A stretch of 64,000 nucleotides of DNA from Blastocystis sp. Blastoise (taxonomy: Eukaryota; Protista; Bigyra: Opalinata): the NCBI GenBank assembly GCA_039096225.1, contig JBBPEB010000009.1, forward strand, positions 1,550,001 through 1,614,000, read 5' to 3'. Of the stretch, positions 1,919-26,183 are shown one piece after another. The translations under genes and the position numbers were made by a program. Below the pieces are notes generated by a model. It made no database searches. It was given only the letters and a program-made list of their open reading frames with translations, and was not told the origin of the DNA. Positions within the stretch are counted from its first letter, which is position 1. Each line of letters opens with the position of its first letter.

Positions 1919-2113
1919 TTGTAGTTAAAAAATAGCACAATAGATCATCATAAAATCTATCAACACTCATTTCATTATCAACTGGTATCATAGTATTAGA
2001 TTCACCTAGATGATCAACCTGCTCAATGTCTAAGTTAACGTGATGAATACGTAACTTATATGCAGTTTGACATAATGTATTTTTGGTACTAGATAGCGTG
2101 TCTTTATGATTAT
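19..2113 (-). pseudogene. hAT-family DDE transposase, 3' part (multi-exon), disrupted by PLV insertion and a +1 frameshift
   Basis: Spliced motifs: NTPFSQVEN..YKLPKRHSLS, YLSFDG (D1), GIVSDNCAAN (D2), GCASH (CxxH), PTRW, PSSSGFSERVWS..RNRLS (catalytic E and dimerisation domain). GT-AG introns, e.g. 1869-1918. Frameshift at the T8 run 719-726 between ORFs 716..1099 and 19..774. Confidence 0.9.
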
Positions 2114-2233
2114 TAATTCTTCCGTTCTTCGAACTGCAGAAGGGGGTATGCAAACCCCGCATAGAGTCTGCGCGACGCGCGCAGCCATAAGCGGGGAAGT
2201 CATCCCCCCTTTTTGTTCTCGACGGAAGAATTA
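2114..2233. repeat. GC-rich imperfect terminal palindrome (hairpin), left
   Basis: Nested pairings TAATTCTTCCGT/ACGGAAGAATTA, GAAC/GTTC, AGGGGG/CCCCCT, ATG/CAT, CCCCGC/GCGGGG, CTGCGCG/CGCGCAG; apex at 2175-2177. Confidence 0.9.
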
Positions 2234-2805
2234 ATAACATTTCTGAAGTAAAATAACCATGGGAGTGTAGGGTAGTGTGTGTGTGTATTTATTTTTTCCC
2301 ATGTTTATTTATTTTTAATTTATTTGTGTTCCGATTCCAACGTGAAACGTAAAGTGATCAAGGAGAAACTCATAGTAATCATAAAAGAAATAAAATACAC
2401 ACTCACACCCTCCCCTTTACAGGGAATATTCATGGGAAATGGCTCCATCGTTGGTAAAGTGAGTAAAATAATCACGGGAATACAGAAAGAAATACGAAAA
2501 GAAGCACAGAATGTGCTAAATAAACACACACCCCGACCCTCCCTTTATATAGAGAAAAGATGAAATGGATGGTTCTATCTAAAAAGAAATAATAGAAATA
2601 ATCACGGGAATATATAAAAATAAAAATGTATGTATAGTGATCAATAAATAATATAAAAAGTCATGATAATCATAAAAAAATATATAAAAAGAGTAAAGTG
2701 ATCAAGGTATGTATTTATAGTGGGTGAAAGAAAAGCTGGTGGTGGTGTGGTCTTGTAAAAAGATGTACCCACCACCACGATTATAACGAGAGACTTTTGG
2801 AAACA
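2114..2805 (+). repeat. Left terminal inverted repeat (~692 bp)
   Basis: Reverse complement of 26434-27126 with about 10 substitutions and one 1-bp indel, counted by eye. Confidence 0.97.
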
Positions 2806-2834
2806 TGAGCGACCGATATGGAAAAATATAAATT

Positions 2835-2882
2835 TTCTAGAACATTCTAGAACATTCTCGAAACTTCTAGAACATTCGAGAA
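2835..2882. promoter_or_regulatory. HSE-like nGAAn array (10 units) upstream of YR1
   Basis: TTCtaGAAcaTTCtaGAAcaTTCtcGAAacTTCtaGAAcaTTCgaGAA, ~90 bp before ATG 2971. Confidence 0.75.
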
Positions 2883-2970
2883 CATGAGAATCTTAGATAT
2901 TTTATTTTGATTTTCTTATGTATTATTCTTTTGAAAATAGAAGTTTTAGAGATTCTACTTGAGAAAATCA

Positions 2971-3906
2971 ATGAAAAATACAAATTATGACAAGTATCTT
3001 TTGGTTATACAGAATTCAAATTATTCTGATATTTGGAAAAAACGTTTAACCAATTATTTCAATTTATATATTTTCCCATTACCATTTAAAAAGTTCTCAG
3101 AATTCTTAAAGAATCCTTATTCATTCATGGATTATATGGTAAATGAACGTAAAATCAAAATTAGTCCAATGAAATCGTTATGTGAATTGATATTATTTAT
3201 TATACGTAATGTTTCTTCATTAAATAAAGAAGGTATTTTAAATAAATGGTGTGAATTTTATGTGATTATTAATGCAATGTATGAAAAATATCTGGATAAT
3301 AAGAAACGCACTTTGATTCAAGATCTTATTAAAGATGGTATTACGACTCCATATTTACATGAATATCACGATAAATTAGAAAATTATAATCCATTACGAT
3401 TAATATTAGATTTTTACTCCTATCTTCCTCCTGCTCGTGCTGATTATGCTCAATTATTCATTCTAACTCCAGAAGATACTATTGATCCAGCTATTCATAA
3501 GAATTATATTGTTTATGATAAAGAGAAACACACTGGTTCTATTCTATTAAATGATTATAAAACTGCTGGTAAATACTCTACAATTCAATTAGATGCACCA
3601 AAAGAATTGATTGAAGATCTAGAATTACTCTTAAAAAGAAATCCAAATCGTAAATTTATATTTGAATCTTCTGTAAGAACTGGATTTACTACTAAAGCAT
3701 TTGATTGGTTTGTGAATAAGCATTTAAAACAAATCCATCCAAAATTAACCATTAATGCATTAAGAAAATTATATGCTACAACTACAACCAATACATTCCA
3801 AGATATAGAAAATTCTGCTTCTGCTTTATGTCATAATGATTATACACATATTAATTCTTATGTATCTTTAGAAAATAATAATTTATTTAAAAAATTAATT
3901 GAATAA
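2971..3906 (+). CDS. Tyrosine recombinase/integrase 1
   Basis: Catalytic motifs PPARADY (R), LNDYKT (K), INALRK (xxxR), LCH and INSY (H and Y). Confidence 0.85.
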   Translation: MKNTNYDKYLLVIQNSNYSDIWKKRLTNYFNLYIFPLPFKKFSEFLKNPYSFMDYMVNERKIKISPMKSLCELILFIIRNVSSLNKEGILNKWCEFYVIINAMYEKYLDNKKRTLIQDLIKDGITTPYLHEYHDKLENYNPLRLILDFYSYLPPARADYAQLFILTPEDTIDPAIHKNYIVYDKEKHTGSILLNDYKTAGKYSTIQLDAPKELIEDLELLLKRNPNRKFIFESSVRTGFTTKAFDWFVNKHLKQIHPKLTINALRKLYATTTTNTFQDIENSASALCHNDYTHINSYVSLENNNLFKKLIE

Positions 3907-3972
3907 TTTTTAATATTTGTTTTGTTTAATAATTTTAATAACTAAACAACTAGTAATAAAAGGATATAAAAA

Positions 3973-4347
3973 TTAATTAAAAGGTAAGAAAGATAGATTA
4001 TTATTATTATTTTGATATTGATTTTGTTGTTGATTACTTTTCATAGTTGGCATAAACATATTATTGGGTTGAATAAGATTCTTATCCTCTTGATATTGAT
4101 TCTCATTCTTCATATATTGTTTATCCAATAGCATTTCAAGACGTTGATGAATCACAGGATCATCTATATAAAGTAACATGTTTCTACAATAACTCAATTG
4201 CAAATCACTAAGATTCTTGTTGTTATTATTATTTAAAAATTGTTCTAATAGATTCGCTATTTCATTCTTTTTGGATTTAATTCCTTCTTCTTTTAGATTC
4301 TTCATCACACGACAAAAATAAGAATAACTAAGATATTTCTTGTTCAT
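3973..4347 (-). CDS. Viral hypothetical protein (124 aa)
   Basis: ATG-initiated ORF preceded by a CCAAT box and an HSE-like array. Confidence 0.65.
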   Translation of the reverse strand: MNKKYLSYSYFCRVMKNLKEEGIKSKKNEIANLLEQFLNNNNNKNLSDLQLSYCRNMLLYIDDPVIHQRLEMLLDKQYMKNENQYQEDKNLIQPNNMFMPTMKSNQQQNQYQNNNNNLSFLPFN

Positions 4348-4442
4348 TATTTAAATTAGCCAATGATTAAACAAAACAAATTAATTATATAAAACACTAA
4401 TATAATAAATTAAAGATTCTACAAATAGAGCCAGTTCAAAAT

Positions 4443-4465
4443 GAATGTTCTAGAATGTTCTAGAA
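4443..4465. promoter_or_regulatory. HSE-like array (5 units)
   Basis: GAAtgTTCtaGAAtgTTCtaGAA, ~95 bp upstream of the ORF starting at 4347. Confidence 0.65.
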
Positions 4466-4605
4466 CGTTTCTTGGACATATAAAAGTAAAGTAAAATATA
4501 TATAATAATAAGAACAATTTCAATAACTGACAGTATTTCATTTACATTCTCTAAAATTTCTGCACTACGATCTAAGTAGTAATTGCCAAATCGTTTCTTT
4601 GTCAT
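4450..4605 (-). CDS. Small viral membrane protein (51 aa, one TM helix)
   Basis: ATG at 4605; hydrophobic stretch ILSVIEIVLIIIYILLYFYM followed by basic residues; own upstream HSE array and downstream TGTTTTGTT. Confidence 0.5.
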   Translation of the reverse strand: MTKKRFGNYYLDRSAEILENVNEILSVIEIVLIIIYILLYFYMSKKRSRTF

Positions 4606-4669
4606 TATAGTATTAAATAATAAACAAAACAAATTAATTATACAAAATATTAATATAATAAATTAAAGA

Positions 4670-4687
4670 TTCTAGAATATTCTAGAA
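4670..4687. promoter_or_regulatory. HSE-like array (4 units)
   Basis: TTCtaGAAtaTTCtaGAA upstream of the ORF starting at 4605. Confidence 0.6.
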
Positions 4688-4691
4688 TGTT

Positions 4692-5285
4692 TTAACAAGG
4701 CATAAGATTTCCATTAGAAAGTAAATAAAGTAAAGAATAATAAAAGCAACCATTTGCATTACTTGTAGTTTTTTGGTGTTGAATAGGATTATATTGAATA
4801 TTATGATTTTGAATAAATGATTTTGAGAAAGTAGGTTCATTTCCTAATGATGAATAGTGTTCTATGTTTTTATTACCATTATAAATAACAGCTTCAAAAT
4901 GACCATTATAAGGATCACTAGGACTTTCATGAAAGATCATATTAAATTTAGTTTGATCTTGATCTATATTTTGTTCAAAATCATCATAACTATTATAATA
5001 ATTATAAGATTGAGAATTTGTTTTATTTAATTGTTTCATAACATTTTCAGCACGATCACAAGCAACAGAAGAAGTAGGTTTATTTAAATAAGCATAATTA
5101 TATAATTGAGATATTAGAGAATTTGGTATATTACAATATTGAGATAGAGTTTGCTTAAAATTATCAGGGGATCTAGGAGTAACATGACGAGTTTTATCAG
5201 ATATAATAGGATTATCACAATTCATTGAATTTTGAATAAGTTTTTCATCTTTACTCTTTACCAGATCCCCTCCCCTGAGTTTTTT
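4692..5285 (-). CDS. Adenain-like capsid maturation cysteine protease, probably expressed as a -1 frameshift fusion to the upstream core protein (first in-frame ATG at 5225)
   Basis: GHFEAVIY..EHYSSLG..YNPIQHQ..NGCFYYSL matches the H...(D)SxG...Q...C pattern of adenain/PLV proteases; the ORF-track start at 5312 is TTG. Confidence 0.8.
   Translation of the reverse strand, partial: KKLRGGDLVKSKDEKLIQNSMNCDNPIISDKTRHVTPRSPDNFKQTLSQYCNIPNSLISQLYNYAYLNKPTSSVACDRAENVMKQLNKTNSQSYNYYNSYDDFEQNIDQDQTKFNMIFHESPSDPYNGHFEAVIYNGNKNIEHYSSLGNEPTFSKSFIQNHNIQYNPIQHQKTTSNANGCFYYSLLYLLSNGNLMPC
5164..5285 (-). promoter_or_regulatory. Putative -1 programmed ribosomal frameshift signal (A AAA AAC plus stem-loop)
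   Basis: Heptamer 5285-5279 is correctly phased in the core ORF; 8-nt spacer; GGGGAUCUGG (5270-5261) pairs with CUAGAUCCCC (5176-5167), extended by GAGUAA/UUACUC and AUGA/UCAU. Confidence 0.75.
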
Positions 5286-6886
5286 GATAACATATACTTC
5301 TTTTCTTTCCAAAACATTTGCTCACCTCTATCTAATATTTCATTATTATCCATCTTCTGTTTTATTGTTTGTAATTGTTTTAAATCATTTTTAGCTACCT
5401 TACGTTTCCTTTGTTCTACTTGTGCAGGTATTACAAAATCTGTATAAGCTGTTACCAATGGAGGTAAATCACCACCTCTTTTCTTTTTAGCTTCTTTTCC
5501 TCTTCTCATTCGTTCTAAGAATTCTTCTTTACTTAATTTAACTCGACCACCATAACCTCTACGTTTAGCTCTTCTTGCAGCTATTCGTTTATCCCTTTCA
5601 TCTTCTTTCCATTTTCTATCGACTTTCTCTTTATCATTTTGAGGGAAACCATAAATCTTATAAGGATAACTTTGTTCATCACGAGACATTGGCTTATAAG
5701 GTTGAGGAGGTTGAGGTTGAGGAGGTCTAACAACTTGTTGTTGTGGAGGTGGTGGAGGTTGAACAACGGGTTGTGGATGTAATCTATCATCTTCGTCAAG
5801 AGCATCTTGCATTTCATCAGCTACATCATAATATCCTTCAAACATCTTATTTATAGTATTTCCTGAACCTATTTGTTTTTTCATTTCATTTAATGCTTGT
5901 TGACGTTTTAATTTTTCCATTTCAAATTCCATATCATTTAATTCACTTGACTGTTGTGCCAAATGTGTATCATAATAAGCTTTTCTACCTTTAGCAAAAG
6001 AATCCATACCTTTATCAACTACACCTAAAAGAGCTGGTGCATAATTCATAACTCCATCCCAGAATCCACCACCTCTTTTAACTCTTAATATACCATCACC
6101 ACTTTCAGCTGAATCTAAATCTATATATTTTGGTATAATTGAAGGTCTTAACATTCTTCTTAATTTTGGATTCTTAATCATTTTCTTATTTTTAATTGCA
6201 TTCATAATTGCTGAAGCAACAGATATAGGAATCTTTCCACCACGTTTAATTTTATGTTCATAGAATCTTTTGAATTCATCATCAAGATCATGATGACCAT
6301 CACCAACATATTGAGCTAAAATAGCTAATGCATCACGAGCTTTTCTATTAGCTTTTTTATCTACAATAGCATCTCTTATATCTAATACATTTCGTTGATA
6401 CATATCTTTTACTTTATTTTTAATTGCATCACCAATACCAGAACCTTGATTATTCTCTAATTTATTGATTTCTGATTTATTTGGAATAATTCCTCTACCA
6501 GATTTACGTCTTGGTTTACATGGATTTAATACTTTATATTGACGATCTTCACCATCTATTTTATCTTCTTCTGGACCAGCTGCTTTCATTACACCTTTAC
6601 CTGCTGCTCTAGCACGAATTAAAGCACCATTTCCTTGTGGAACAGCATCTTTACCAAATGTTTTAGAACGATCTACATAATCATCTTCTTTACCATCATG
6701 TATTTCTTTACTTTCTAAAGTAGACACAGGCATAGATGAATTTGGACCTATTTCATGAAATATTGGATTATATTGATCCATTTTATGTAATGGCTGTGTA
6801 TTATATCGCCTATATTCTTTTCCTGTTGAAATTAAATTCATACCAAAAGTACCAGGACTTGGCATTCCTAAGATACAACTTTGCAT
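5258..6886 (-). CDS. Putative virion core polyprotein (basic; multiple xGG and GxG protease sites; amphipathic helix)
   Basis: KRGG x3, YGG, GNGAL, GKGVM, GRGII, GSGIG, GDGIL, GEGIW; Lys/Arg-rich segments; FWDGVMNYAPALLGVV follows RGGG. Confidence 0.7.
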   Translation of the reverse strand: MQSCILGMPSPGTFGMNLISTGKEYRRYNTQPLHKMDQYNPIFHEIGPNSSMPVSTLESKEIHDGKEDDYVDRSKTFGKDAVPQGNGALIRARAAGKGVMKAAGPEEDKIDGEDRQYKVLNPCKPRRKSGRGIIPNKSEINKLENNQGSGIGDAIKNKVKDMYQRNVLDIRDAIVDKKANRKARDALAILAQYVGDGHHDLDDEFKRFYEHKIKRGGKIPISVASAIMNAIKNKKMIKNPKLRRMLRPSIIPKYIDLDSAESGDGILRVKRGGGFWDGVMNYAPALLGVVDKGMDSFAKGRKAYYDTHLAQQSSELNDMEFEMEKLKRQQALNEMKKQIGSGNTINKMFEGYYDVADEMQDALDEDDRLHPQPVVQPPPPPQQQVVRPPQPQPPQPYKPMSRDEQSYPYKIYGFPQNDKEKVDRKWKEDERDKRIAARRAKRRGYGGRVKLSKEEFLERMRRGKEAKKKRGGDLPPLVTAYTDFVIPAQVEQRKRKVAKNDLKQLQTIKQKMDNNEILDRGEQMFWKEKKYMLSKNSGEGIW

Positions 6887-6961
6887 TTTTTTATTTCAAT
6901 TATAAAATTATTTATAAACAAAACAAATATATTAATAAAAAATAAATTTAACATTAAAAAT

Positions 6962-7555
6962 TTATAAATTAGTTAAATCAATAATAGTATCATTACTATT
7001 AGTATTCTTCGTAGATTTATCGATGACTTTAATAGAACGAGCATATAAACCAATATAATACTTGTTATTATAACGATGAATACCATGTATTGTAAATAGT
7101 ACTTTACATAACGTATTTGGTGGAATATACTTTTCACGTATTTCTTCGTAAGTTAACTTAGGATCTTTACCGATATTAATCTTCTTATCTCTTTTATCAG
7201 TGATATCAATAGTAACATTCTTCGATGCATTAATAGGTACTTTAATTGTAATCTTATATTTACCATTATCCATACGTACAAAATTAACAATATCACCATC
7301 AGGACATAATTCACATAATTTACGATAAAGTTCTTTATAAGCAGTTAAGAATACTTGATTATCATCTTCAATTGTTAATAAAGTCCATTTATCACGTGTA
7401 ACAATATAACCAAATAAACATGGTGTAGCATCAGTAGAAATACATACACGATGATTATTATTTAAAAGAACAGCATTTTCTTTGGTGTCATCCCATTGTA
7501 AATTAAAGTTAGAAGTATCAAGAATAGTAGGTTTTTTAAATTCAGTTGAAGACAT
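6962..7555 (-). CDS. Putative OB-fold single-stranded DNA-binding protein
   Basis: Beta-rich pattern YKITIKVP..IPPNTLCKVLFTIHGIHRYNNKYYIGLYARSIKV resembles viral gp2.5/NCLDV-type SSBs; HSE array upstream. Confidence 0.55.
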   Translation of the reverse strand: MSSTEFKKPTILDTSNFNLQWDDTKENAVLLNNNHRVCISTDATPCLFGYIVTRDKWTLLTIEDDNQVFLTAYKELYRKLCELCPDGDIVNFVRMDNGKYKITIKVPINASKNVTIDITDKRDKKINIGKDPKLTYEEIREKYIPPNTLCKVLFTIHGIHRYNNKYYIGLYARSIKVIDKSTKNTNSNDTIIDLTNL

Positions 7556-7632
7556 TTTTAGTTAAGTATTTAGTAAAAATATAAGTATTTTAATACTAAT
7601 ATTTTACGATATTCTTTTCAAATGAATCAATT

Positions 7633-7680
7633 TTCGAGAAGGTTCGAGAAGGTTCTAGAATGTTCGAGAAGGTTCTAGAA
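7633..7680. promoter_or_regulatory. HSE-like array (10 units) upstream of the SSB-like gene
   Basis: TTCgaGAAggTTCgaGAAggTTCtaGAAtgTTCgaGAAggTTCtaGAA. Confidence 0.75.
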
Positions 7681-7873
7681 AAAAAAGAACACTTGAATAA
7701 TCTAATGGAAACATTTTAACGGAATCGAACCATGATACTGTGGTTACATATTTCTTTAATAGATCCATTAGACCATTCAAGAATTCTATTTGAAACTATT
7801 CTATTCTCCATTTAAACTTTGTGTAATTAATTTAAAAAATAAACAAAACAAAATAATTAATTAAATAAATAAA

Positions 7874-8401
7874 TTAATGATCAAATATTTCAGACATAGA
7901 AGGAATAGAATATTCGGATAATAATGAAACAATTTCTTTAGAATCATCATGAATCTGTTTTAAATCTTGTTTCTGACTTTCAATCTTTGTTTTTAAATGA
8001 TCAACAGTACAATAAATACTATTTAATATATTATCAGCCGTTTCCATAGTTTGAAATAAAGATTCGAATTGACTGGATATATTTGTTAACTCCTCATTTG
8101 TAAATAATAAAGCTTGCTTATTAGGATTTGTATTTACTTGATCTTGAAATTGTATTGGTTCATTGTTAACCGAATGATATCTATCTGGATTTTTAGATAC
8201 GTAAACATCATTGATTGGATGAATTTCTTGAGGTGGATCTTCAAACATGATTTCGTCACGCGAATTAAAACAGAAATCATTATCATTGGGTAAAGCCATA
8301 GGATTTTCAGAAACACTATTTTCAAATGGATTCAACAAGGGGGATATCATGGCTTGACCGAAAGGGGATAAACTGGCAGAAAGACTATCAGGAATTTCCA
8401 T
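7874..8401 (-). CDS. Viral hypothetical protein (acidic/Pro-rich N-terminus, coiled-coil C-terminus)
   Basis: 175-aa ATG ORF with downstream TGTTTTGTT motif. Confidence 0.7.
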   Translation of the reverse strand: MEIPDSLSASLSPFGQAMISPLLNPFENSVSENPMALPNDNDFCFNSRDEIMFEDPPQEIHPINDVYVSKNPDRYHSVNNEPIQFQDQVNTNPNKQALLFTNEELTNISSQFESLFQTMETADNILNSIYCTVDHLKTKIESQKQDLKQIHDDSKEIVSLLSEYSIPSMSEIFDH

Positions 8402-8509
8402 GATTATTTAAACCTTCAAAAGTATTTTTATACAATATATTAAATATACTATTTTTAGTGTACAGTTCTTCATTTCAGTTGCTAACAAAAGCCTATTGCT
8501 TCCAGCTGG

Positions 8510-8688
8510 AAAATAAGCCAATAAAATAACTTATTTCGTATGACACATCGTCGTCATCGTCTAATTGTGTTTTACTAATTTTTTTATCCAATCAGATTAC
8601 AGATGCCAACTATACTCGTCATTGAAACACAAATAAAAAATGCTAAGTCGACAAAATTAGCCAATCAAATGAACCTTCTAGAACATTC
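8510..8688. promoter_or_regulatory. Divergent promoter with three CCAAT boxes and a 4-unit HSE
   Basis: AGCCAATA (~8516), TCCAATCA (~8587), AGCCAATCA (~8659), GAAccTTCtaGAAcaTTC (8671-8688). Confidence 0.55.
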
Positions 8689-8799
8689 CATAGAGATTCT
8701 ACACTGTCTCCTAGAATATTTAATATTCCATTTAAATGTATTATTTATTTCATTTTGATAAATACAAATTTTCTCTCTGTAACGATATTCGCGATTATA

Positions 8800-9423
8800 A
8801 TGCAATTTAATCTTTCTGCTGATTCCCGTAAATGTCTTCAAACTGTTCGTATGGAACTTCTAAAGAATTCTAAGAAGGCTGTTGAAGTTCATAAGAATGT
8901 TCTTCGTGATATTGATTTACATCAGTCTCAATTGAATAGAGAAAAGAATCTATTGGGTATTGCAAAATCTAAAGAACGTCTTGCTTCTTTCGAAGTCGAA
9001 AACTATAGATCAGCTTTAAAACGTATAAACGCGGTTATTAAAGGTCTTGAAGATTATGAAGAATTCGCTGCTGATATTTATACTCAACAACTTAATGAAG
9101 AACAAGATATTCAAGATATTATCAATACTGAAGATCTTTTAGAAAGTGATAGAACTACTATTTTATGTTCTGAAGATTCTAAAGAACATTCGAATTCTAA
9201 AGATGATGATTTTGATATTATGAAATTCCATATGGAAGATGGATTCCTTTATGATGAAAAAGGTAAAGTTTATTCTTATGAAGTTGTTCATGCTAAGAGT
9301 ATTAACAAGATTAAAAGAGATCCTTCAAAACAAATGTATTTCTGGGATGGTATTTTATATGATAAGAATGGATGGCCTCATTCATGTACATATATTAATA
9401 GTCAAGAACCAATTGAAATTTAA
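8800..9423 (+). CDS. Viral hypothetical protein (coiled coil plus two C-terminal DGxLYDxxG repeats)
   Basis: ATG at 8800; EDGFLYDEKG and WDGILYDKNG. Confidence 0.75.
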   Translation: MQFNLSADSRKCLQTVRMELLKNSKKAVEVHKNVLRDIDLHQSQLNREKNLLGIAKSKERLASFEVENYRSALKRINAVIKGLEDYEEFAADIYTQQLNEEQDIQDIINTEDLLESDRTTILCSEDSKEHSNSKDDDFDIMKFHMEDGFLYDEKGKVYSYEVVHAKSINKIKRDPSKQMYFWDGILYDKNGWPHSCTYINSQEPIEI

Positions 9424-9533
9424 TTTATTTTCTTGTTTATTTTTCTATTTTTACTTATAAACTTGTAAAAAATCATTGAAAATTGTTTTGTTTATTGTAT
9501 ATACATTTAAAACACTAAAGTATAAAAATGATG

Positions 9534-9671
9534 TTCTAGAAGGTTCTAGAAGGTTCTAGAAGGTTCTAGAACATTTAAAAATATAAAGTAATATTTACTA
9601 TTATAGAATGTTCTAGAAGGTTCTTGAATGTTCTAGAAGGTTCTAGAAGCTTCTAAAACTGACTTCTAGAA
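9534..9671. promoter_or_regulatory. Two HSE-like arrays (8 and 10 units) upstream of the primase-helicase
   Basis: (TTCtaGAAgg)n at 9534-9571; GAAtgTTCtaGAAggTTCttGAAtgTTCtaGAAggTTCtaGAAgcTTC at 9606-9653. Confidence 0.78.
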
Positions 9672-9739
9672 TCTTTAATATATTATTTGTTTTAAATGTT
9701 GTATTATAATTATTTTCATTATTTATAAGTCAAATAATC

Positions 9740-12700
9740 ATGGAAAATTCACAAATTCATTTTGTTTATACTTTTGGTTCCTTTAATCATGATAATTCAA
9801 AAGATAATCATAGTGAAATTATTATACCAAATCCATTACCATTTTATAAAAGTCTATTTACTAATTACCAACATCAAAAAGAATTACTACATTATATTGA
9901 TTGTACTCCTTGTAATACATCAACTAATTATAGAAGATTATGGTTTGATTTAGATTATCACCAAATATCAAATGATTTTTCTTTTCTAACAGATTCTTTT
10001 ATTCATGAATTTATAGAAGAAATGTGTAATCATTGTATTCATTATTATAATCAAGAATTTATTTCGCTTGTGTATACAAAGAAAGAAGTGAATAAGAAGA
10101 CAGTTCATAATGAAATACATTATTCATGGGGAATTCATATATATACAAATTGGTTTGTAAATGGTGATTATTTATTTTTCTTATATAATAGTATGATTCT
10201 GAATACAAAATTGGTTGATTTATGTAAAATGAATAATTTAGATATAAAAGAATTCATTGATTATAATGTTATTGGTAAACCAAGAAAGAATAATGGTTGT
10301 ATGTTTCTTGGTTGTAGTAAAGATAATTCTCCATCTACTTATAAATTATACGAAGAATATACCAATAAATCATGGAAGAAAATAGATGATGAAATCGATG
10401 AACATTATTATTTCAAAACATTATTGAATTATAAGAATGAAGATGATATTATAAGTGATATTATTAATCCTATTATTTTTTCTAAATTAAAACAATATTC
10501 ACGTTATAAACGTTATTATGCAAGATTAAATAATTGTTCACGTACTATATTATGTTCTATACAAGATATTAAAGATATTCCTATGTTGATTTCTACAGAT
10601 ACTATATTGGATACTACAGCATCTAAAGAAGCTTTATTAGAACGATATTTATTATTGATTGGTTCTATTGAAGATATGAATTATTTTGAATCCCATAATA
10701 CTTGGTATAAATTATGTTGTGCAGCAAAACAGATTTGTAATACAACAAGAGGATTAGAATTATTTAAAAATTATTCATTACGTTATGGTCATGATCGAAG
10801 TGATGATGTAATTGAATCTACATGGAATCATATACAAGTTGATCCTACTCATTTATCGAATAATTATATTTTGAAGATATTAATGGATAATAAATTATTT
10901 AATAAAGATGATGATAATGATTTCATATTTATGTCTATTTTAGAATGTATTCAATCCTTTAATCTTGTAGATTCACAAACATTAGTTATGTTATTTCAAT
11001 TATTAGAATTTAATGAAATTGTTTCTATTATATTAGATAAAGATAATTTTATCTTATATACATTTGATGAATATAATATCTTAAGACGTTGTAAGAATAA
11101 TTATGATATTAATTTCTTTGAAACCAAAATAACTACATTTATGAAATCAATTGTAGAGAAATTCAAATTATCAAGATTATATTCTAAAGAGAATGAACAA
11201 CATCAAAAAATAGTTGATAAAATAATGTCTGCTTCTGTTACTAATGAATATCATTATAAAGAATGGTTGAATCGTTATTTGAAGACTTATGGTAAATCTT
11301 ATAAAGAATATTTAGATACTTATATGGTTCATAAAGAACGTGTTATCTATACACAACTTGGTTATTTATATCCAAAAGAATCAACAGAAGAAGATCCTAG
11401 ACAATATTATATCCAACCATATCATAAAGAAGATATGGTATTTGAAGATTTATTAATTGATACTGAATTTAATGTAAGTTGGAATATTAATAATGAACAG
11501 AAAGATATTATCCAATTATTTGAACAACATATTGCAAGATATTGTGAATTCGATAAGAAATATGAAAGTATTATGTTACGTATCTTAACCACTGCTTTCT
11601 ATGTCAATACTCAGAAAACTGTTTCTTATATATTATATGGTAGTACAGGTAGTAATGGTAAAACAATAACAACTGATTTAATTTCTCGTATTGTAGGTAG
11701 TAATCAATGTATTATAGTAAATCCAGATAATTTAGAAGAAACATCTATAGCTCCTAAGATTGTAGATATGTCTAATAAAACAATGTATTATATGAATGAA
11801 TTAATAGAAGAAGATGTTACTGGTAGAAAGAAAACATTTAATCCATTCTCTTCTAAAGTCTTTAAAGAAATAGCAGAAAAGAAAGAAGGTGCTAGTGCTC
11901 GTAAATTATTCAGTAATATATTTACAAAAGTTCATTTCACGGGTACTTTATTTATGACAAGTAATATCCAACCTACTGCTGTGAATGCTGGTCCTATTGA
12001 AAGAAGAGTTTGTTTCTTACCTTCATGTTGTCGTTATTTCCCTCCTGGTAATGCTAATTTATATGAAGATTATGTAGATCATAATTTACCTAAACGTAAA
12101 CAGACAGTAGAAAAGAGATTGAAACCAAATCATTATGAAATGGATTATACTTTATCCGATAAATTCTATCAGAATCGTTCAATTATCTTTAGTTATCTAG
12201 TAAGTAATTATTTCTATTCTAGTATGCAATTAGATATGCATGAATTAGATAATGAATATCATATAAGTGAATGTAAGAAACGATTCTTTGATCGTAGTAC
12301 AGAAGGATATGATTTGAAATCTTTTGTTGATAACCATATTACTATAGATCCTTATTATTTGAATGTAGTTACTATTGAAGATATTTTTAATAGTTATAAG
12401 AAAGTGAATAATAATAATCAATTTACGATTAAGAAAGATTTAGATAAATTTACAAATGCTTTATTTGGTTGTTTAAGTAGTAAAGATACATTCAATTCTA
12501 TAGATATTGTGAATATTCATAGAAAACATACTTCAAATTTCTATAAGGGAGGGAATGCTATTGGTATTTGTGGTTTAATGATTGATAATACTTATAATGA
12601 ATGTGTAGATACAGATTTATTCTGTTTATCCAATTGTTTATCTAAGAAAGAAGAAATTGTTTATAGTGAAGATCAATATCATAATACGTCATCAACAAAA

Positions 12701-12742
12701 CGAATTTTAATAGATAATACTTTATATGCTATACCAAATTAA
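9740..12742 (+). CDS. AEP primase(-polymerase)-PriCT2-D5-like SF3 helicase fusion
   Basis: AEP motifs LWFDLD, WGIHIY, FID; PriCT-2-like NTWYKLCCA..STWNHI; Walker A GSTGSNGKT, Walker B YYMNE, motif C FMTSN, Arg finger IERRV. Confidence 0.92.
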   Translation: MENSQIHFVYTFGSFNHDNSKDNHSEIIIPNPLPFYKSLFTNYQHQKELLHYIDCTPCNTSTNYRRLWFDLDYHQISNDFSFLTDSFIHEFIEEMCNHCIHYYNQEFISLVYTKKEVNKKTVHNEIHYSWGIHIYTNWFVNGDYLFFLYNSMILNTKLVDLCKMNNLDIKEFIDYNVIGKPRKNNGCMFLGCSKDNSPSTYKLYEEYTNKSWKKIDDEIDEHYYFKTLLNYKNEDDIISDIINPIIFSKLKQYSRYKRYYARLNNCSRTILCSIQDIKDIPMLISTDTILDTTASKEALLERYLLLIGSIEDMNYFESHNTWYKLCCAAKQICNTTRGLELFKNYSLRYGHDRSDDVIESTWNHIQVDPTHLSNNYILKILMDNKLFNKDDDNDFIFMSILECIQSFNLVDSQTLVMLFQLLEFNEIVSIILDKDNFILYTFDEYNILRRCKNNYDINFFETKITTFMKSIVEKFKLSRLYSKENEQHQKIVDKIMSASVTNEYHYKEWLNRYLKTYGKSYKEYLDTYMVHKERVIYTQLGYLYPKESTEEDPRQYYIQPYHKEDMVFEDLLIDTEFNVSWNINNEQKDIIQLFEQHIARYCEFDKKYESIMLRILTTAFYVNTQKTVSYILYGSTGSNGKTITTDLISRIVGSNQCIIVNPDNLEETSIAPKIVDMSNKTMYYMNELIEEDVTGRKKTFNPFSSKVFKEIAEKKEGASARKLFSNIFTKVHFTGTLFMTSNIQPTAVNAGPIERRVCFLPSCCRYFPPGNANLYEDYVDHNLPKRKQTVEKRLKPNHYEMDYTLSDKFYQNRSIIFSYLVSNYFYSSMQLDMHELDNEYHISECKKRFFDRSTEGYDLKSFVDNHITIDPYYLNVVTIEDIFNSYKKVNNNNQFTIKKDLDKFTNALFGCLSSKDTFNSIDIVNIHRKHTSNFYKGGNAIGICGLMIDNTYNECVDTDLFCLSNCLSKKEEIVYSEDQYHNTSSTKRILIDNTLYAIPN

Positions 12743-12786
12743 ATTTATATTTATTTTTTACTATAAAAAGTTGTTTTGTTTTAAAA

Positions 12787-14583
12787 TTAATAAAATTTAA
12801 ATTGTATTCCATGAAAATGTTTTTTAGGGACTTTGACTTTAAAGAATGCATTACTTTTATTTTTTTTACATAAACCATGACCCCGATGAATAGGTTCTAA
12901 AGGAGGCATAGTAGAAAGACTACGTAATGCATAAGTATCTGAATTATTCATAACTATAGGTGTAGAGTTTTCATCTTGAGTATTCTGTTGCATAAGAGAT
13001 GCTTGAGTATTCGTTAATTCTGAATCCGTTGTATTATTATGTAAATGATCAGGTAATAATTGTTTATTACGTATAAAACGATTATAACGATCTCTAGAAT
13101 TCTCTGGAACTTCTTCAGATTCTAATGAACATCCTACAGGTAATTCATTTTCTAAATCTGTTTTATCTGGATAATGATGCTTTAATAGATCTTTATAATA
13201 TCTTAATGTAATCATTATAGTATCATTATCTGATGAATATTGTTCTAGACTACTTAATATCGATTCTGATTTCATATTGAAATTCTCTTTACCAAATACA
13301 TCTTCATAGTCTTCTTCATATTGTTCTATACGATCATTAAATCGTTTACATAAAAATAATAATTTATTCAATTGATTAATTTCTCTTGTATAAGTAATAT
13401 TATTCATATCAATATGAAATGTTCTTGTTTTATTATCTAAATCTTGCAATTTAGTTGAATGAGAAGATAAATAAGGAGATATATAATTTTCCATATGTGT
13501 TGATTGACTATGTAACATCTTCATAATCGAATTTTCAAAGAGTTCTACACCTTTAGATTCGTGTTCTGAATCATTATGTTGGAATTGTGCTTCTCTTGAT
13601 AATCTATAATAATATTGAGCAAATAAATGTCTTATAATATCACAACCATTAATTAAAGAATTATTCTGTTGTGTTTTATAAATCCAGCCTAAATGGGGTT
13701 TTATATATTCATCACCAAATTTCAAATCACGTACTTTACCACCATTCTCAGTAACAAATAAATAATGTCTTGGAAATAAACGTAAGGATCTAGCTAAGAC
13801 ATTCAAATATTCTTCTGATAAATATTGATAAGTAGGATATTCATTCTTACCAATTTCAAATCGATTCTTTGTATCATTCACATGAATAGTCAAAGTATTT
13901 AAATCAATATAATTGGTTGTTCTTCTTAAGGATAAAGGAATTTGTTGACCACGAGTATAGATTACACAATCATTATAATCATTACGAGCACATAATGTAT
14001 CATAAGTTAAAACTAATAAATAACTATTCACATAATATAAATCATTAGGATTCTCTAAATAATTCTTTTTGGTGATATTAATGATTTCTCCCCAATCAGC
14101 TTCACAATTAATAATTTTCTGAGTGATTTCATAATGTCTTGAATAAGTAGCATCAATTTGTAAAGAACCCCATAAATGTTCCCATTTCTTTATATTTTGT
14201 GGAGTAAATGCTTTATAATTAATGATATCTTCATCATCTGTACAAATAGATATATTCTTCATTATATATGTAATCATTTGCATATAATTAGCTACTGTAG
14301 TATTGGATAATCCACCTTGTTGTCCAGGAGCTTCTGTTTGTGTATGTTGCATAACATTTTGAAATTGAAATGGATCTGTTAACACTTCTACACAAAAGAA
14401 TGGTTCTTCCATATCATCTATTTGAATTCGTTCTTCATTACGAAATTTCTTACATATTGTTTTGATCCATTTCTTCCAATTTATACTTGTTGATAATTGT
14501 ATTTTCTTCCAATGTAATAATTGATCTATACAATTTGTAAAGAATTCCTCACAATCTTTATCTGAATAACCTGTTGATTGCAT
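12787..14583 (-). CDS. Tyrosine recombinase 2 with long C-terminal extension
   Basis: LCARNDY (R), VNDTKN (K), DIIRHLFA (R), MLHSQSTHMENY (H, Y) are collinear with the YR1 motifs. Confidence 0.78.
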   Translation of the reverse strand: MQSTGYSDKDCEEFFTNCIDQLLHWKKIQLSTSINWKKWIKTICKKFRNEERIQIDDMEEPFFCVEVLTDPFQFQNVMQHTQTEAPGQQGGLSNTTVANYMQMITYIMKNISICTDDEDIINYKAFTPQNIKKWEHLWGSLQIDATYSRHYEITQKIINCEADWGEIINITKKNYLENPNDLYYVNSYLLVLTYDTLCARNDYNDCVIYTRGQQIPLSLRRTTNYIDLNTLTIHVNDTKNRFEIGKNEYPTYQYLSEEYLNVLARSLRLFPRHYLFVTENGGKVRDLKFGDEYIKPHLGWIYKTQQNNSLINGCDIIRHLFAQYYYRLSREAQFQHNDSEHESKGVELFENSIMKMLHSQSTHMENYISPYLSSHSTKLQDLDNKTRTFHIDMNNITYTREINQLNKLLFLCKRFNDRIEQYEEDYEDVFGKENFNMKSESILSSLEQYSSDNDTIMITLRYYKDLLKHHYPDKTDLENELPVGCSLESEEVPENSRDRYNRFIRNKQLLPDHLHNNTTDSELTNTQASLMQQNTQDENSTPIVMNNSDTYALRSLSTMPPLEPIHRGHGLCKKNKSNAFFKVKVPKKHFHGIQFKFY

Positions 14584-14650
14584 TATTAAAAATTAAATTA
14601 TTTATAAACAAAACAAATTTATTATTAATATTTTATAACATTTCATAGAA

Positions 14651-15073
14651 TTATAAATGAAGAGATTGAACAATAGAATCAACACTTATATTTAATTTCA
14701 TTAATTGAACAGCTAATTCTTGTATTGATTCATTTTGATTAGAATCAATTTCTTCTAATTCATTCAAGACTTCTGATATATGTTTGACTTCTTCTTCTAT
14801 AATCGTTTGTTGTATTTTCATTGTCTTATAATAGACTTTCTTTGTTTGTGGATTACAACAATTACAATGAATATCTATATTTTTAACAATTAATTGAAAG
14901 AATTCAGTTGATTTCTCAAATAAACATTTTATAGCTTTTATAATAAATTCTAATAAAGTATTTTTCTTTTCTATTTCTTCTTCGGATAATGTGGTTGTTG
15001 TTGAACTATCTGAACTTGTTGAACTTGTACTTGATAAAGAATGTAAGGATTCAGATACAGATTTAGGCTCCAT
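14651..15073 (-). CDS. Viral hypothetical protein (Ser/Thr-rich N-terminus, HCNCC cluster, coiled coil)
   Basis: 140-aa ATG ORF flanked by viral intergenic motifs. Confidence 0.7.
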   Translation of the reverse strand: MEPKSVSESLHSLSSTSSTSSDSSTTTTLSEEEIEKKNTLLEFIIKAIKCLFEKSTEFFQLIVKNIDIHCNCCNPQTKKVYYKTMKIQQTIIEEEVKHISEVLNELEEIDSNQNESIQELAVQLMKLNISVDSIVQSLHL

Positions 15074-15142
15074 TTTTTAATAATTTTTAAATGAATAATA
15101 TAACAAAACATTTTTTAATTTAAATGAAATGACTTAAAATAT

Positions 15143-17578
15143 TTATATATAAGAGATAGTTAATAAAACAACACAAGGATAATTACATGTTATAAAGAAC
15201 ATATTATCATGAGGTAATAACTTTAATAATTTACGATTACAATAATAAACATTCTTATTAATCTTATTCGATATACCTTCATATTTAATACCATTAGAAT
15301 AGTAATAAGGTAGATTTGTAGTATCAATAACATGAATATTATTCTCATATTCATTAGTAAAACATCTTAATGAAATAGGATATAAGTAATCAGTGGATTG
15401 ACCATACACTGATATAATTTGTATATTTGTTAAATATTGATATCCATAGACATTGGTTTTCTTCAATTCATAAATTAAATTCTTACTCGTACTAAAATCA
15501 CAATATACTTCATCATAAGCTTTGAAACGTATATCACTACCATTAGGTTCACATATATTACAAATGATATTTCCTTTGAATAATTCATCAAATCTTAAAT
15601 CTATATTATGATCAATTGTGATTGGAGAATTTATATTACTATAAGTAACATATTTATCAGATAAAGGAAAACTAAATGTAGGATAATATGATCCATTTAT
15701 ATATCCAGTACATAATTTAGATGCATTTGCTTGGATTGTATCTGTATCATTTTGAATAATAATATCTTTTAAGATCTTATTTTGGATATTCAATGTAGGA
15801 TATTCAGCATAGAATTGTGTGTCTGCTGTTTGACAATTCAAACATAATTTCTTAATAGTTTCACTTGGTTGAATCGTATCGACTGTATCTGAGAATTCTA
15901 AGAATCCTCTTAAAATACAATTATTATTAAAATTCACATATTGTTTATTTTTATCAGTATATCGTATAATAATATCTTGTATTGTATTCAAATAAGGAGA
16001 CACATTAATATTCATAATATCATGAAATTCATTATTGCCTTTATAATTATTCACATTGAATGAATATAAAGAATTCTGACTATTATCTACTATATTCGAT
16101 TGAGCTATTAACATTCCTTTTGGACGACTACTATCAATATTATGAATACCATAATTAATAATTTCATCATGACCTAATTTATTATAACCTAAGATTTCAC
16201 CTAATTCTTGAGCTTGAGAGAAATCTATATGATAACTATCAGTATAACACTTATAATTACCATCTAAATCAAGTGTATTCAAATCAGCTATTTTGTCTGG
16301 TATTAATTGTTTACCATAAGATACATACCAAGCAAAACATCCTTGTTCATCATAAACTAAATCAGGACGTATATTATGTAGAGCACCACGATACTTAAAT
16401 AAGGAGTGCTCTATATCTGTAGCTGTAAATGTGAATGACGTAGAATCAGTACCTTTACAAGATAAATATATTATATATCCATCCTTATTGTCCATAGTCT
16501 GAGTATCTTTGGATATACTTAAATAATCCGTATAAATTGTATTATTGATTGAACTTTCTAATAATTCATAGAATTTGTTTTCTGTGTAATTTCCAGGAGG
16601 AACAGTGAATGTAGTTTCATGAACACCATCATAACCACTCAATTGTCGAACAATCATTGTATTATATCCATCTTCCACAAAGACTGTTCTTTTAATTCTA
16701 TTTAATGTAATTTCCTCTTGAAGTGAAGTATATGTCAATGTTTCTGAATCTTCAAATAAGCCAGTGAATAATTGTTTTTCTAAACTGAGTATATTATTAC
16801 TTGACAATTGGAAATAAAATTTATGTTCATCAGCTAATACACATTTCATAATTCCATTAGAACCTTGTGTTGGAACAATATAACTTGAATGATCACTCAC
16901 ACCATCAGTAAAGAATTCATTCAATTCATAGATTCCTGTTGATGTAACAGGAACATTATAAGAAGTTAATTGAGGTCGATATATGGTTATAGTATCATCA
17001 TCATATCTCATCATTAAACGATTAAATTTATCACCCCATTTAGCTGATACACAACATACAGCTATCCACCAAAACTCTATATCCGTATAAGTACCTTTTG
17101 GAAAGTAAAAACCACGTCTTTTATTATAAATTGTAATTTCACAATACCAATCATCTCTATCAATGGTTATTGTTGGGGCTTCATTAATTTTGACAGTGTG
17201 ATCAATATCAGGAGAATCTTTTATTACTGGTCTATCACATACATCAAAATGACATAGTTCTAATAATTGTGGAATTGAATAATTTTTCTGATCTAAAGTG
17301 ATTGTATATACGGAACTATTACCATTGACACGAGTATTTATATATTTGAATATTTGTGTTTTTGTGAAAGTATCAAATAGAGGCACACTTTCACTACCAA
17401 TTAAATTAAGATCAATATAAGAAATGATATTTTTAGTGATATCAATAGAATTCGATAAATGTATATTGAATTGATTATCAATACAACGAACATCAATAGG
17501 GACTACATGTGTTTTAATACGAGTATCCTTCTCTTCTAATGAAGTCTGTTCTTCTTGATTATCTTCATCAAGTTCCAT
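15143..17578 (-). CDS. Large penton-type minor capsid protein with repeated insertion domains
   Basis: Penton motifs TITLDQKNYS, FPKGTYT, VPPGNYT, LGEILGY, LIAQSNIV, IIIRYTDKNKQYVNFNN; extra C-terminal ~250 aa. Confidence 0.7.
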   Translation of the reverse strand: MELDEDNQEEQTSLEEKDTRIKTHVVPIDVRCIDNQFNIHLSNSIDITKNIISYIDLNLIGSESVPLFDTFTKTQIFKYINTRVNGNSSVYTITLDQKNYSIPQLLELCHFDVCDRPVIKDSPDIDHTVKINEAPTITIDRDDWYCEITIYNKRRGFYFPKGTYTDIEFWWIAVCCVSAKWGDKFNRLMMRYDDDTITIYRPQLTSYNVPVTSTGIYELNEFFTDGVSDHSSYIVPTQGSNGIMKCVLADEHKFYFQLSSNNILSLEKQLFTGLFEDSETLTYTSLQEEITLNRIKRTVFVEDGYNTMIVRQLSGYDGVHETTFTVPPGNYTENKFYELLESSINNTIYTDYLSISKDTQTMDNKDGYIIYLSCKGTDSTSFTFTATDIEHSLFKYRGALHNIRPDLVYDEQGCFAWYVSYGKQLIPDKIADLNTLDLDGNYKCYTDSYHIDFSQAQELGEILGYNKLGHDEIINYGIHNIDSSRPKGMLIAQSNIVDNSQNSLYSFNVNNYKGNNEFHDIMNINVSPYLNTIQDIIIRYTDKNKQYVNFNNNCILRGFLEFSDTVDTIQPSETIKKLCLNCQTADTQFYAEYPTLNIQNKILKDIIIQNDTDTIQANASKLCTGYINGSYYPTFSFPLSDKYVTYSNINSPITIDHNIDLRFDELFKGNIICNICEPNGSDIRFKAYDEVYCDFSTSKNLIYELKKTNVYGYQYLTNIQIISVYGQSTDYLYPISLRCFTNEYENNIHVIDTTNLPYYYSNGIKYEGISNKINKNVYYCNRKLLKLLPHDNMFFITCNYPCVVLLTISYI

Positions 17579-17649
17579 ATTTTCTAATTTATAAAATAAT
17601 AATTTATATTAATTTTATTTTATTTATTAATATTTTTTTATTAAAAAAA

Positions 17650-19122
17650 ATGAGAATCTTAAGAATTAAAGATAATATTCCTATTCAAAGTGATACTGAT
17701 ATTCTATCAAGTCCTTATATCTTTCAATATCATTGGACTAATGTGGATAACACTTATATCAATTTCAATCAATCCTATTTGGATCTTACTGTCAAGGCAA
17801 CTGTCACAGATAAAGCTGGACCAGTTTCTGTTTATTTAGATGAAACAGGTACTTCTGTTAGTTTCACCTATGATCAATTATGTCAATATTTCTTGGATCA
17901 ATTAGTTCAAAAAGCTAATATTTATTCTATTATTGATTCCACTGATGTTGAAATGGTTTATACTTTACCTGATGGATCTGATCGTGCTTTGAAATATGAA
18001 GAAAACTGTACACATGCTTCACGTGGTCGTAAAATGATTTTATTAAAAGATATCAGTAAGAATGATTTAGAAAAATCTATGTATGGTGAAGATTTATCTG
18101 CAGATACTTATGAATTGAATTCTATTCGTTATATACGTGCACATCCAAATGAATCTATTCATATTGCTATTCCTTTATATCTCATTAGTGGTTTAGGTGT
18201 TGATGGAGATTCTTTAATATTAACTAAACATTTCAATATGCTATTTAGAACGAGTACAATTGAATCCTTAATTGATAATAATATGAGTATTTATTTCAAG
18301 AATGGTGGTGCTAAATTATCAACACAATGGTTACATCTAACTGATGAAAAATGGTTTAAGACATTTGAATTGGAATCAGCTACTATGAATTTAATGACTT
18401 ATAAAGATATTCAATTCCAAACGAATGAATTATATAAAACTATACCTACATGTATTCAAGTCGATTATCAAAATACAAGAATAACTAGTGATCATTTCAA
18501 TATCAATAGAGCTTTACCATTTATACCTGAATATATATTATACTGGTTTACAAATGGGTATAGTTCAACAACTATTAGTAATGTAGCTAGTCCATCTGTA
18601 TGGCCTAAATATCAAAGTTGTTTGATTGGTGATGTTCAAATGTTCCCTCAAACTGAATTCCCTACTCAAATGTATTATCATAATCTTACTACTAAAGGTC
18701 ATGTCTTCAATAATGAAGAAACTGCTAGTTTATCTTGTCCTAATAAAAATCTATATTGTTTATGGGCTGATAATTCAAATCCTGAAACTATTCTTAAATA
18801 TGATGAATGGATTAAACATCCTATTTATATTATTCCAACTAAAGCATTAATGAATATCCAATCAGATAGTGGTATAGAAATGAATTTTGATTGTAATCTA
18901 GATGTCCATGATATTGAATATGGTCATGCTGATTCATCTACTGTTCCTGATGGATATACATGTACATATAATGAAACTACTAAAATATGGACACCTGACA
19001 CTGGTGCTTCTTATGCCGTTGCTTCTCATGCTGGTATTTATAAACATATTAATACTGAACTAAATGAGAAGCATCCTTATACATTACATATGATTGCTGT
19101 ACGTAGTGTACGTGATATTTAA
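17650..19122 (+). CDS. Major capsid protein paralog A (double jelly-roll, inferred)
   Basis: ATG at 17650; YINFNQSYLDLTV and IAIPLYLISGL motifs typical of Polinton/PLV MCPs; collinear with 19299..20522. Confidence 0.75.
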   Translation: MRILRIKDNIPIQSDTDILSSPYIFQYHWTNVDNTYINFNQSYLDLTVKATVTDKAGPVSVYLDETGTSVSFTYDQLCQYFLDQLVQKANIYSIIDSTDVEMVYTLPDGSDRALKYEENCTHASRGRKMILLKDISKNDLEKSMYGEDLSADTYELNSIRYIRAHPNESIHIAIPLYLISGLGVDGDSLILTKHFNMLFRTSTIESLIDNNMSIYFKNGGAKLSTQWLHLTDEKWFKTFELESATMNLMTYKDIQFQTNELYKTIPTCIQVDYQNTRITSDHFNINRALPFIPEYILYWFTNGYSSTTISNVASPSVWPKYQSCLIGDVQMFPQTEFPTQMYYHNLTTKGHVFNNEETASLSCPNKNLYCLWADNSNPETILKYDEWIKHPIYIIPTKALMNIQSDSGIEMNFDCNLDVHDIEYGHADSSTVPDGYTCTYNETTKIWTPDTGASYAVASHAGIYKHINTELNEKHPYTLHMIAVRSVRDI

Positions 19123-19298
19123 ATTTAATATTTCTTACTTACTATTCTTAACGTTAACTTGTTTAATTAATTCTATTCTATTCTATATTCCAATCATTTG
19201 TTTTGTTATAAAAATTTAAATTAATTAATAATTATAAAATATTATTATTATTTTATTTTTATTTTTGTTAAAAAAATACATAAACAATAATTATTAAC

Positions 19299-20522: not shown

Positions 20523-20618
20523 TTTAATTATATAATATTTTCTTATTTGTATCAACTTTATATTAATCTTAAAAATATTGTTTTGTTTATCAATACATAA
20601 TTAATTTATTTAATAAAA

Positions 20619-21290: not shown

Positions 21291-21359
21291 TAAAATCATT
21301 TATTTATCTTTAACTTATCATTAATTATTTTTTGTTTTGTTGATTAAAATCATATAAAA

Positions 21360-22397: not shown

Positions 22398-22450
22398 TTT
22401 TTTTATATTTTAATTTGTTAAATAAACCATAATTATTTTATTGTTTTGTT

Positions 22451-23488: not shown

Positions 23489-23564
23489 TTATTTTAACTT
23501 TTATTATTTCATAATTAATTATTTGTTTTGTTATATAATTATTTTTAAATTAATACAATAAATA

Positions 23565-24362: not shown

Positions 24363-24450
24363 TGATACTATTAATATACTAACTATATAATATAAATAAT
24401 TTCTTTTTTTTGTTTTGTTTTAAAATTCATAATTATTTTATTAATTTAAA

Positions 24451-25941: not shown

Positions 25942-26015
25942 TTAATTTTAATTTATTTTATTTATTATTATTTTAAAAAACTAAACAATTTGTTTTGTTA
26001 TTTATAAAAATTAAT

Positions 26016-26183
26016 TTAAAAATCAATAAAATTCTTGATATAATCTTCGTAATCATCCTCACTTTCAGTTTGAATAGTATCCATTTCAGAATCACTATCA
26101 CTTAATTCATCAACTTCAAAATTTCCATAAGGTTTCCAATTACCTTCTTTATAATCTGGAGCAAATTGCTTTGGAGAATCCAT
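26016..26183 (-). CDS. Small acidic viral protein (55 aa)
   Basis: MDSPKQ...EDDYEDYIKNFIDF; HSE array directly upstream. Confidence 0.6.
   Translation of the reverse strand: MDSPKQFAPDYKEGNWKPYGNFEVDELSDSDSEMDTIQTESEDDYEDYIKNFIDF

Follow-up and report, generated by a model that had tools for sequence, protein, structure and literature searches.

A likely gag-pro-like −1 ribosomal frameshift between a putative core protein and a clan CE protease in a Polinton-like virus of Blastocystis

Programmed −1 ribosomal frameshifting is familiar in RNA viruses, retroelements and phage tail genes; proteases of the adenain, ASFV pS273R and I7L type are stand-alone genes with a start of their own. The adenovirus adenain entries found in the PMC11071296 supplement begin with Met. 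In the retroviral gag-pro junctions of MMTV, HTLV-I/II and BLV the slip site is A_AAA_AAC, followed by a spacer of 6-8 nt, and the same heptamer is listed for astroviruses (PMC3835772); the structural precursor is read in frame 0 and the maturation protease in frame −1. The locus described here, contained in a 64,000-nt stretch of DNA from Blastocystis sp. Blastoise (the window), is alike in heptamer, spacer length and order of the frames. It differs in that gag-pro comes with an aspartic protease and a reverse transcriptase, whereas the window contains a dsDNA double-jelly-roll virus with a clan CE cysteine protease and no reverse transcriptase; moreover, the gag-pro stimulator is a compact pseudoknot, while in the window a long-range bulged stem is predicted. 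The Gag, aspartic protease and reverse transcriptase expected of retroviral gag-pro-pol were not matched by Pfam among 17 ORFs of the element, and the protease is a His/Cys enzyme; the system, which likely works like gag-pro, does not belong to that group.

For DNA viruses, Buck et al. (2024; PMC11071296) reported KnotInFrame results that point to −1 slippage in some pentons of adintoviruses and to potential fusions of hexon with adenain. The “Hexain” and extended pentons of adintoviruses and adabscoviruses resemble the present junction, as a −1 slip is predicted to lead from a virion protein to adenain in midsize eukaryotic dsDNA viruses; however, the partner in “Hexain” is the major capsid protein of animal viruses, in a brief prediction, whereas in the window it is a GG-rich core-like precursor of a protist virus, for which fused relatives provide natural controls. 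An earlier note on this DNA had regarded such a frameshift as undescribed for Polinton-like viruses: given the related −1 frameshifts predicted by Buck et al., this is too broad. That brief computational prediction was the sole mention of −1 frameshifting in Polinton-like viruses found in a literature covered in part, which does not establish absence from print. The junction is a real feature of the window, and its likely reading is a −1 frameshift of the gag-pro kind in a DNA virus of a protist.

The viral element and the two genes at the junction

The features are collected in Table 1. The size and terminal inverted repeats (TIRs) of the element fit what is expected of Polinton-like/MELD viruses (TIRs, 15-40 kb), and the low-confidence model of the major capsid protein (MCP) matched the structures of the Sputnik MCP (E 2.7e-7), PRD1 P3 and PBCV-1, and also a “MELD virus sp.” protein (E 1.2e-11), thus providing the capsid fold typical of the group. 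Together with the replication and packaging genes and with 20 near-identical core proteins named as Blastocystis sp. Blastoise, these features identify an endogenous Polinton-like/MELD virus of the gut protist. The ATPase is putatively of the A32/FtsK type, A32 having been assigned by eye from the sequence. A tyrosine-recombinase/integrase Pfam match was weak (E 0.08, under the cut-off), and neither PolB nor rve was matched among the 17 element ORFs scanned with Pfam; a 598-aa ORF (12787-14583), also without a Pfam match, resembles, as judged by eye, another tyrosine recombinase. Two MCP paralogues stand in tandem (17539-19122 and 19299-20522; 28% identity). Arrays of 10-bp repeats with a TTCTAGAA core, possibly recombinase or promoter sites, are found where the TIRs end on their inner side and within long gaps between genes (2822-2895, 7620-7693, 9521-9681 and 26217-26290). 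To the left of the element are two minus-strand ORFs (19-1099), which we take to resemble pieces of a hAT-type transposase by their motifs.

Table 1. Coordinates in the window of the viral element and of the features at the core-protease junction; (-), minus strand
Feature	Position	Strand	Remarks
Complete endogenous Polinton-like/MELD virus	2111..27129	.	25.0 kb; TIRs, MCP, primase-helicase, ATPase
Terminal inverted repeats	2111-2872 + 26230-27129		~760 bp; 96-98% complementary
Double jelly-roll MCP	19299-20522		low-confidence structure model, pLDDT 47
Primase-helicase	9740-12742		primase PHROG, E 2.4e-9
Packaging-type ATPase	21360-22397		P-loop, within morphogenetic block; PHROG match named terminase, E 1.2e-10
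Putative core (virion precursor) polyprotein, 542 aa	5258..6886	(-)	basic; repeated GG/GxG motifs
Slippery heptamer A_AAA_AAC	5279..5285	(-)	codons S534-K535-N536; in phase, −1 frame open
Spacer, 7 nt	5272..5278	(-)	with A5271, forms 5′ arm of alternative register
5′ arm of predicted stimulator	5245..5271	(-)	5271-5261 (11 bp), 4-nt bulge with core stop, 5256-5251 (6 bp), 5249-5245 (5 bp)
3′ arm of predicted stimulator	5164..5190	(-)	5182-5166 contiguous; 5190-5186; within protease codons
Clan CE (adenain/Ulp1-like) cysteine protease, 195 aa after the slip	4692..5279	(-)	predicted fusion 536+195 = 731 aa
Ten −1-frame codons, SKDEKLIQNS	5226..5255	(-)	after core stop, up to ATG 5225; protein-level conservation
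First ATG of protease frame (177-aa ORF)	5223..5225	(-)	rival start
Possible 23-nt GT-AG intron (rival)	5275..5297	(-)	would join core and protease in frame; from enumeration of GT-AG pairs
TGTTTTGTT 3′ motif, first past core stop	4623..4631	(-)	behind protease, +627 from core

The 542-aa protein is rich in Lys and Arg (K+R 19%, pI 9.6) and matched no Pfam and no PHROG family; its designation as a core protein is putative and made by analogy. A 496-aa ORF (24451-25941) has its N-terminal 60 residues in common with the core protein (E 2e-5) and carries GG/GxG motifs, which makes it a candidate second protease substrate.

The protease had no direct Pfam match and no PHROG family, and its assignment is based on motifs and fold. 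His, Gln and Cys (codons 4901, 4775 and 4748; H141, Q183 and C192 of the 209-aa frame) are invariant in 8/8 aligned sequences and follow the order of clan CE proteases. The structure model (pLDDT 62.5) gave CE-type hits among the Foldseek matches listed, with E > 0.001, and in VIA the ranks 1-26 were, with few exceptions, of CE type (Z up to 6.4, with rmsd 3.6 and 118 aligned); the top fold matches, short of firm thresholds, were SENPs, NopD, ASFV pS273R and I7L, with adenain at rank 26. A distant homologue, P0072, is similar to Peptidase_C5 clusters (0.94-0.96). The protease thus resembles adenain, Ulp1, pS273R and poxvirus I7L in residue order, fold and GG-containing candidate substrates; it differs from them in being, as predicted, the C-terminal domain of a precursor and in its usual catalytic acid. 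In clan CE proteases an acid, or Asn, is expected about 16-17 residues after the His. The Asp of the D-S-x-G motif, present in P0072, is replaced by Ser at codon 157 (4853) and in 5 close relatives aligned; because of this replacement activity is likely but not assured, and a conserved Glu two residues past the His might act as the substitute acid.

Slippery heptamer, predicted stem and shared transcript

The core ORF ends in UUA UCA AAA AAC UCA GGG GAG GGG AUC UGG UAA. It contains two in-phase heptamers, and only A_AAA_AAC at 5285-5279 has a −1 frame open through to the end of the protease; on the minus strand this frame runs without a stop between 5321 and 4692 and reads LRGGDL after the slip. 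Thus, an in-phase X_XXY_YYZ heptamer, as in canonical −1 programmed frameshift signals, lies within the overlap, and the sequence and the open-frame check bear out the earlier claim of a correctly phased slip site with the protease in the −1 frame; that this is the MMTV/HTLV slip site agrees with the tabulation in PMC3835772. By itself the heptamer is weak evidence, with a chance of ~8% within a 21-codon overlap; AAC accounts for 5% of the Asn codons in the element. LRGG|DL, put forward as an exact adenain site echoing KRGG in the core, does fit the (M/I/L)xGG consensus, but the match is uninformative and was rejected as evidence, because P4 is not conserved: the core KRGG sites have K there and the fused relatives have other residues.

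Folding of the junction on the minus strand, which had been proposed as a check, predicts a stable stem exceeding all controls at element codon usage. Most pairs of GGGGAUCUGG/CUAGAUCCCC and GAGUAA/UUACUC, both of which had been pointed out by eye, have pairing probabilities of 0.8-1.0; the 8-nt spacer given at that time becomes 7 nt, since A5271-U5166 adds a pair and brings the first helix to 11 bp. A third helix likewise appears in the prediction, with GAUGA/UCGUC in place of AUGA/UCAU. The two strands of the alternative register, UCAGGGGA and UCCCCUGA, are complementary. The predicted structure (11+6 bp) thus starts within the 5-9 nt downstream of the heptamer that are usual for such signals. 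The stem region folds at -31.2 kcal/mol (z = -2.9; 2/200 shuffles equal or better), a value reached by 0/945 of the 113-nt windows in element ORFs (best -27.4), and it ranks best among 28 in-phase heptamers, being also the sole one with a long −1 ORF (197 codons; others <=15). Synonymous recodings matched its stability in 0/500 cases at element codon usage and in 7/500 with uniform codons; the codons of the stem junction are used at 1-8% in the element, and CUC, AGG, GGG and CUG, read in the −1 frame of the 5′ arm, at 1-2% each. The pairing spans ~105 nt, and a strong local hairpin is absent from the prediction. Against the stem counts the finding that P0070, a fused relative, likewise has GG-L and TPRSP, the residues under the two arms; because of this retention, the stem can reflect synonymous choices only. 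Four Rfam matches were obtained, all so far under the gathering score that they are to be taken as a generic hairpin.

As concerns the transcript, the 3′ motif TGTTTTGTT is present, exact, within 77 nt after 15/18 ORFs, and two more ORFs have it with one mismatch; alone among the 18, the core lacks it (<=1 mismatch) within 90 nt of the stop. The observation that the core-protease junction has no 3′ motif was therefore correct, and the location of the next one behind the protease suggests that core and protease are carried on one mRNA. There are 16 copies of the motif in the 25-kb element (2111-27129), against two in the 36.9 kb of host DNA (27130-64000), and it resembles the downstream gene element known from human-type Blastocystis. 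According to PMC10690189, this element is not enriched in tortoise isolates of Blastocystis; the virus may retain a 3′-processing signal that host genes lost or never had. Two 57-nt repeats (93% identical; 4368-4677), each with a 3′ motif, surround a 51-codon hydrophobic ORF (4605-4450, minus strand).

The 21 core copies all end in the identical 14 residues KKYMLSKNSGEGIW (21/21), whereas variation affects 21 of the 52 columns ahead of them, with two alleles upstream; recombination among copies could be an alternative cause of the identical ends. The gene models of the 20 named copies are never fused (0/20), and no separate protease gene model from Blastocystis sp. Blastoise turned up beside them. 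Contigs from one sequencing run (0.20 share) cover parts of 4300-7700 at ~96-99%, with 5212-5667 uncovered; a single one spans the 3′ stem arm, with no listed difference inside the arm.

Fused and split relatives

Relatives were compared as proteins only. Core and protease form one in-frame ORF in three related lineages (P0024/P0018/P0002, P0070 and P0071), each of which has GG or GxG immediately ahead of the protease domain. In P0070 the protease is 64% identical and GG-L is retained at the position of LRGGDL; this protein also extends by ~140 unrelated, partly low-complexity residues beyond the protease end, where the DNA-encoded stop may be absent, as in some Blastocystis genes, or a gene call may have been merged. 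In the P0024 cluster (30 members) 11 of the 15 members listed span the junction in frame and the other 4 are protease-only pieces; because such pieces occur in a fused cluster, separately called proteases prove little.

The strongest single argument for frameshifting comes from the ten codons that separate the core stop from ATG 5225. Their products are identical at 5/10 positions in P0005 and P0008, 6/10 in P0024 and P0018, and 7/10 in P0070, and in the structure model the region is part of a predicted helix (10-19). Since 5-7/10 residues are identical in 5/5 relatives, the segment is protease-frame coding; judged by this conservation at the protein level, translation of the −1 ORF begins ahead of any start codon of its own, and ribosomes must therefore enter the protease frame before the first ATG.

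Split cores occur in other relatives. In the P0055 lineage (20 members) the core stops at TLKGLAGF in 14 of 15 listed, a sequence that fits U_UUA_AAA followed by a −1 GG at the same spacing, although this fit is post hoc and has a background of 0.13-0.75% per position. A candidate partner of this core is the P0001 protease, unfused in 15/15 members, which are stand-alone 177- or 190-aa ORFs or shorter pieces on contigs of up to 24 kb. In the core tree, split P0055 groups with fused P0024/P0018 (98/96), apart from the core of the window, and monophyly of the split cores was rejected (p-AU 0.03) for a group named post hoc from the tree and with three gappy rows; because of these two features, repeated switching between fused and split forms is a suggestion only. 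The branching of the protease tree was unresolved.

A similar junction is found in Blastocystis MELD virus BK012044 (Starrett et al. 2021, PMC8502044), the protein list of which was taken from the PMC11071296 supplement. It shares the Blastocystis host, while the window MCP matches a “MELD virus sp.” protein, and its adenain, similar by eye in the YLN, DPxNGH and Q..C motifs, adjoins a GG-rich protein and overlaps it in −1. BK012044 encodes pPolB and an rve integrase, whereas the window element has a primase-helicase and tyrosine-recombinase-like genes. In the supplement parts searched, family motifs were found in BK012044 alone for PMC11071296 and in no entry for PMC8502044; the passages of the latter paper that were available make no mention of an overlap or frameshift in BK012044. 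As listed, the BK012044 adenain is devoid of any Met, and its first 38 residues are the exact −1 reading of the last 37 codons plus stop of the adjoining protein, as deduced by hand; the two frames, taken together, require A_AAA_AAG in phase and a run of eight A (A8). Eukaryotic ribosomes slip poorly on heptamers with a final G. At the level of sequence, and on one record checked by hand, the junction of this distant relative shares the architecture of the window, an A9-to-A8 error in the record being possible. A weak bulged stem seen by eye 6 nt past the BK012044 heptamer was given no weight.

Competing explanations and proposed mechanism

A programmed −1 frameshift, by which a minority of ribosomes yields the 731-aa core-protease fusion, is the probable explanation of the junction; the earlier proposal of such a fusion is the best-supported reading, thanks to the fused relatives, the conserved upstream codons and the Met-less BK012044 protease. 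The protease could otherwise be made alone from ATG 5225, by reinitiation 33 nt past the core stop or from a short separate mRNA, the overlap being the relic of an ancestral fusion that lost one base. Met is kept there in 4/5 relatives compared, with Leu in P0070, which counts against frameshifting; the catalytic region falls downstream of this ATG, and the P0001 proteases are stand-alone or shorter ORFs in 15/15 members. However, the conserved SKDEKLIQ would go untranslated, the heptamer, the stem and the rare codons would be unexplained, the gap has a GC content of 22% vs 5-12% in other short gaps, and the BK012044 protease could not start in this way, having no Met in its record; independent initiation at ATG 5225 is thus considered improbable. 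Leaky scanning to the same ATG is ruled out by 62 upstream ATGs. Slightly less credence is given to alternative splicing of a short intron that joins core and protease, the best candidate being a 23-nt GT-AG intron with GTATAT and CAG ends: its removal would excise the heptamer and keep the GG|DL junction, and the invariance of the 21 copies starts upstream of the heptamer, near the donor. Nevertheless, introns of Blastocystis are reported to measure exactly 30 bp in isolates from humans and more than that in those from tortoises (PMC10690189), and a length of 30 bp cannot shift the frame in BK012044; moreover, a spliced fused model is present in 0/20 named copies despite RNA-seq-guided annotation, many GT-AG pairs would give a fusion by chance, and the stem would be unexplained.

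An assembly artefact, with a true A7 and a single in-frame gene as in the relatives, is very unlikely. The ORFs do fuse with one extra A, in-frame fused relatives are known, the assembly is nanopore-based, and polishing of multicopy viral inserts can create false frameshifts (PMC10120064). Yet the assembly is reported to have been polished with Illumina data (Polypolish, POLCA), the 18 ORFs of the element remain intact despite a further 19 A/T6 runs and 5 of 7-8 within them, an in-frame gene would need neither stem nor rare codons, and split cores are found in other data sets too; the copies also agree (21/21), but this was rejected as independent proof against a polishing error, since one polishing run is common to all. 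Least probable of all is transcriptional slippage, in which one A added to the A-run in a minority of mRNAs would give the same fusion: the runs are A6 in the window and A8 in the BK012044 record, but a stem at a 7-nt ribosome spacing suits translation, and other A6-A8 runs are tolerated in ORFs. Moreover, A6 is short for polymerase slippage.

Heptamer, predicted stem and overlap together indicate that a fraction of ribosomes likely makes, by a −1 frameshift, the fusion that relatives encode as one gene. In the mechanism proposed, the two ORFs would be carried on a single mRNA, on which a minority of ribosomes, held by the predicted long-range stem, would slip back by one base at A_AAA_AAC and produce the 731-aa fusion, while the remainder would stop at the 542-aa core; the slip would thereby set a sub-stoichiometric level of protease. 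By analogy with gag-pro, the fusion would enter the particle along with the core precursor; a cut at the end of the GG encoded right behind the slip site, as expected by analogy with clan CE maturation proteases, would then free the protease, which in turn would mature GG-containing precursors.

A more tentative but conceivable reading is that the gag-pro strategy of retroviruses was reached by convergence in a family of DNA viruses of Blastocystis, which would have switched repeatedly between an in-frame gene and a −1 frameshift with differing heptamers, namely A_AAA_AAC in the window, A_AAA_AAG in BK012044 and perhaps U_UUA_AAA in the P0055 lineage. The locus is a sharply defined and cheaply testable case with natural in-frame controls. 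If the frameshift is real, it would show how the maturation protease is dosed and packaged in Polinton-like viruses, would provide a case of a long-range stem stimulator acting on stramenopile ribosomes, would explain Met-less or “missing” protease genes in the annotation of these viruses, and would caution against calling such junctions decay; if the repeated switching is true as well, protease dosage would be an evolvable dial in preplasmiviricot maturation.
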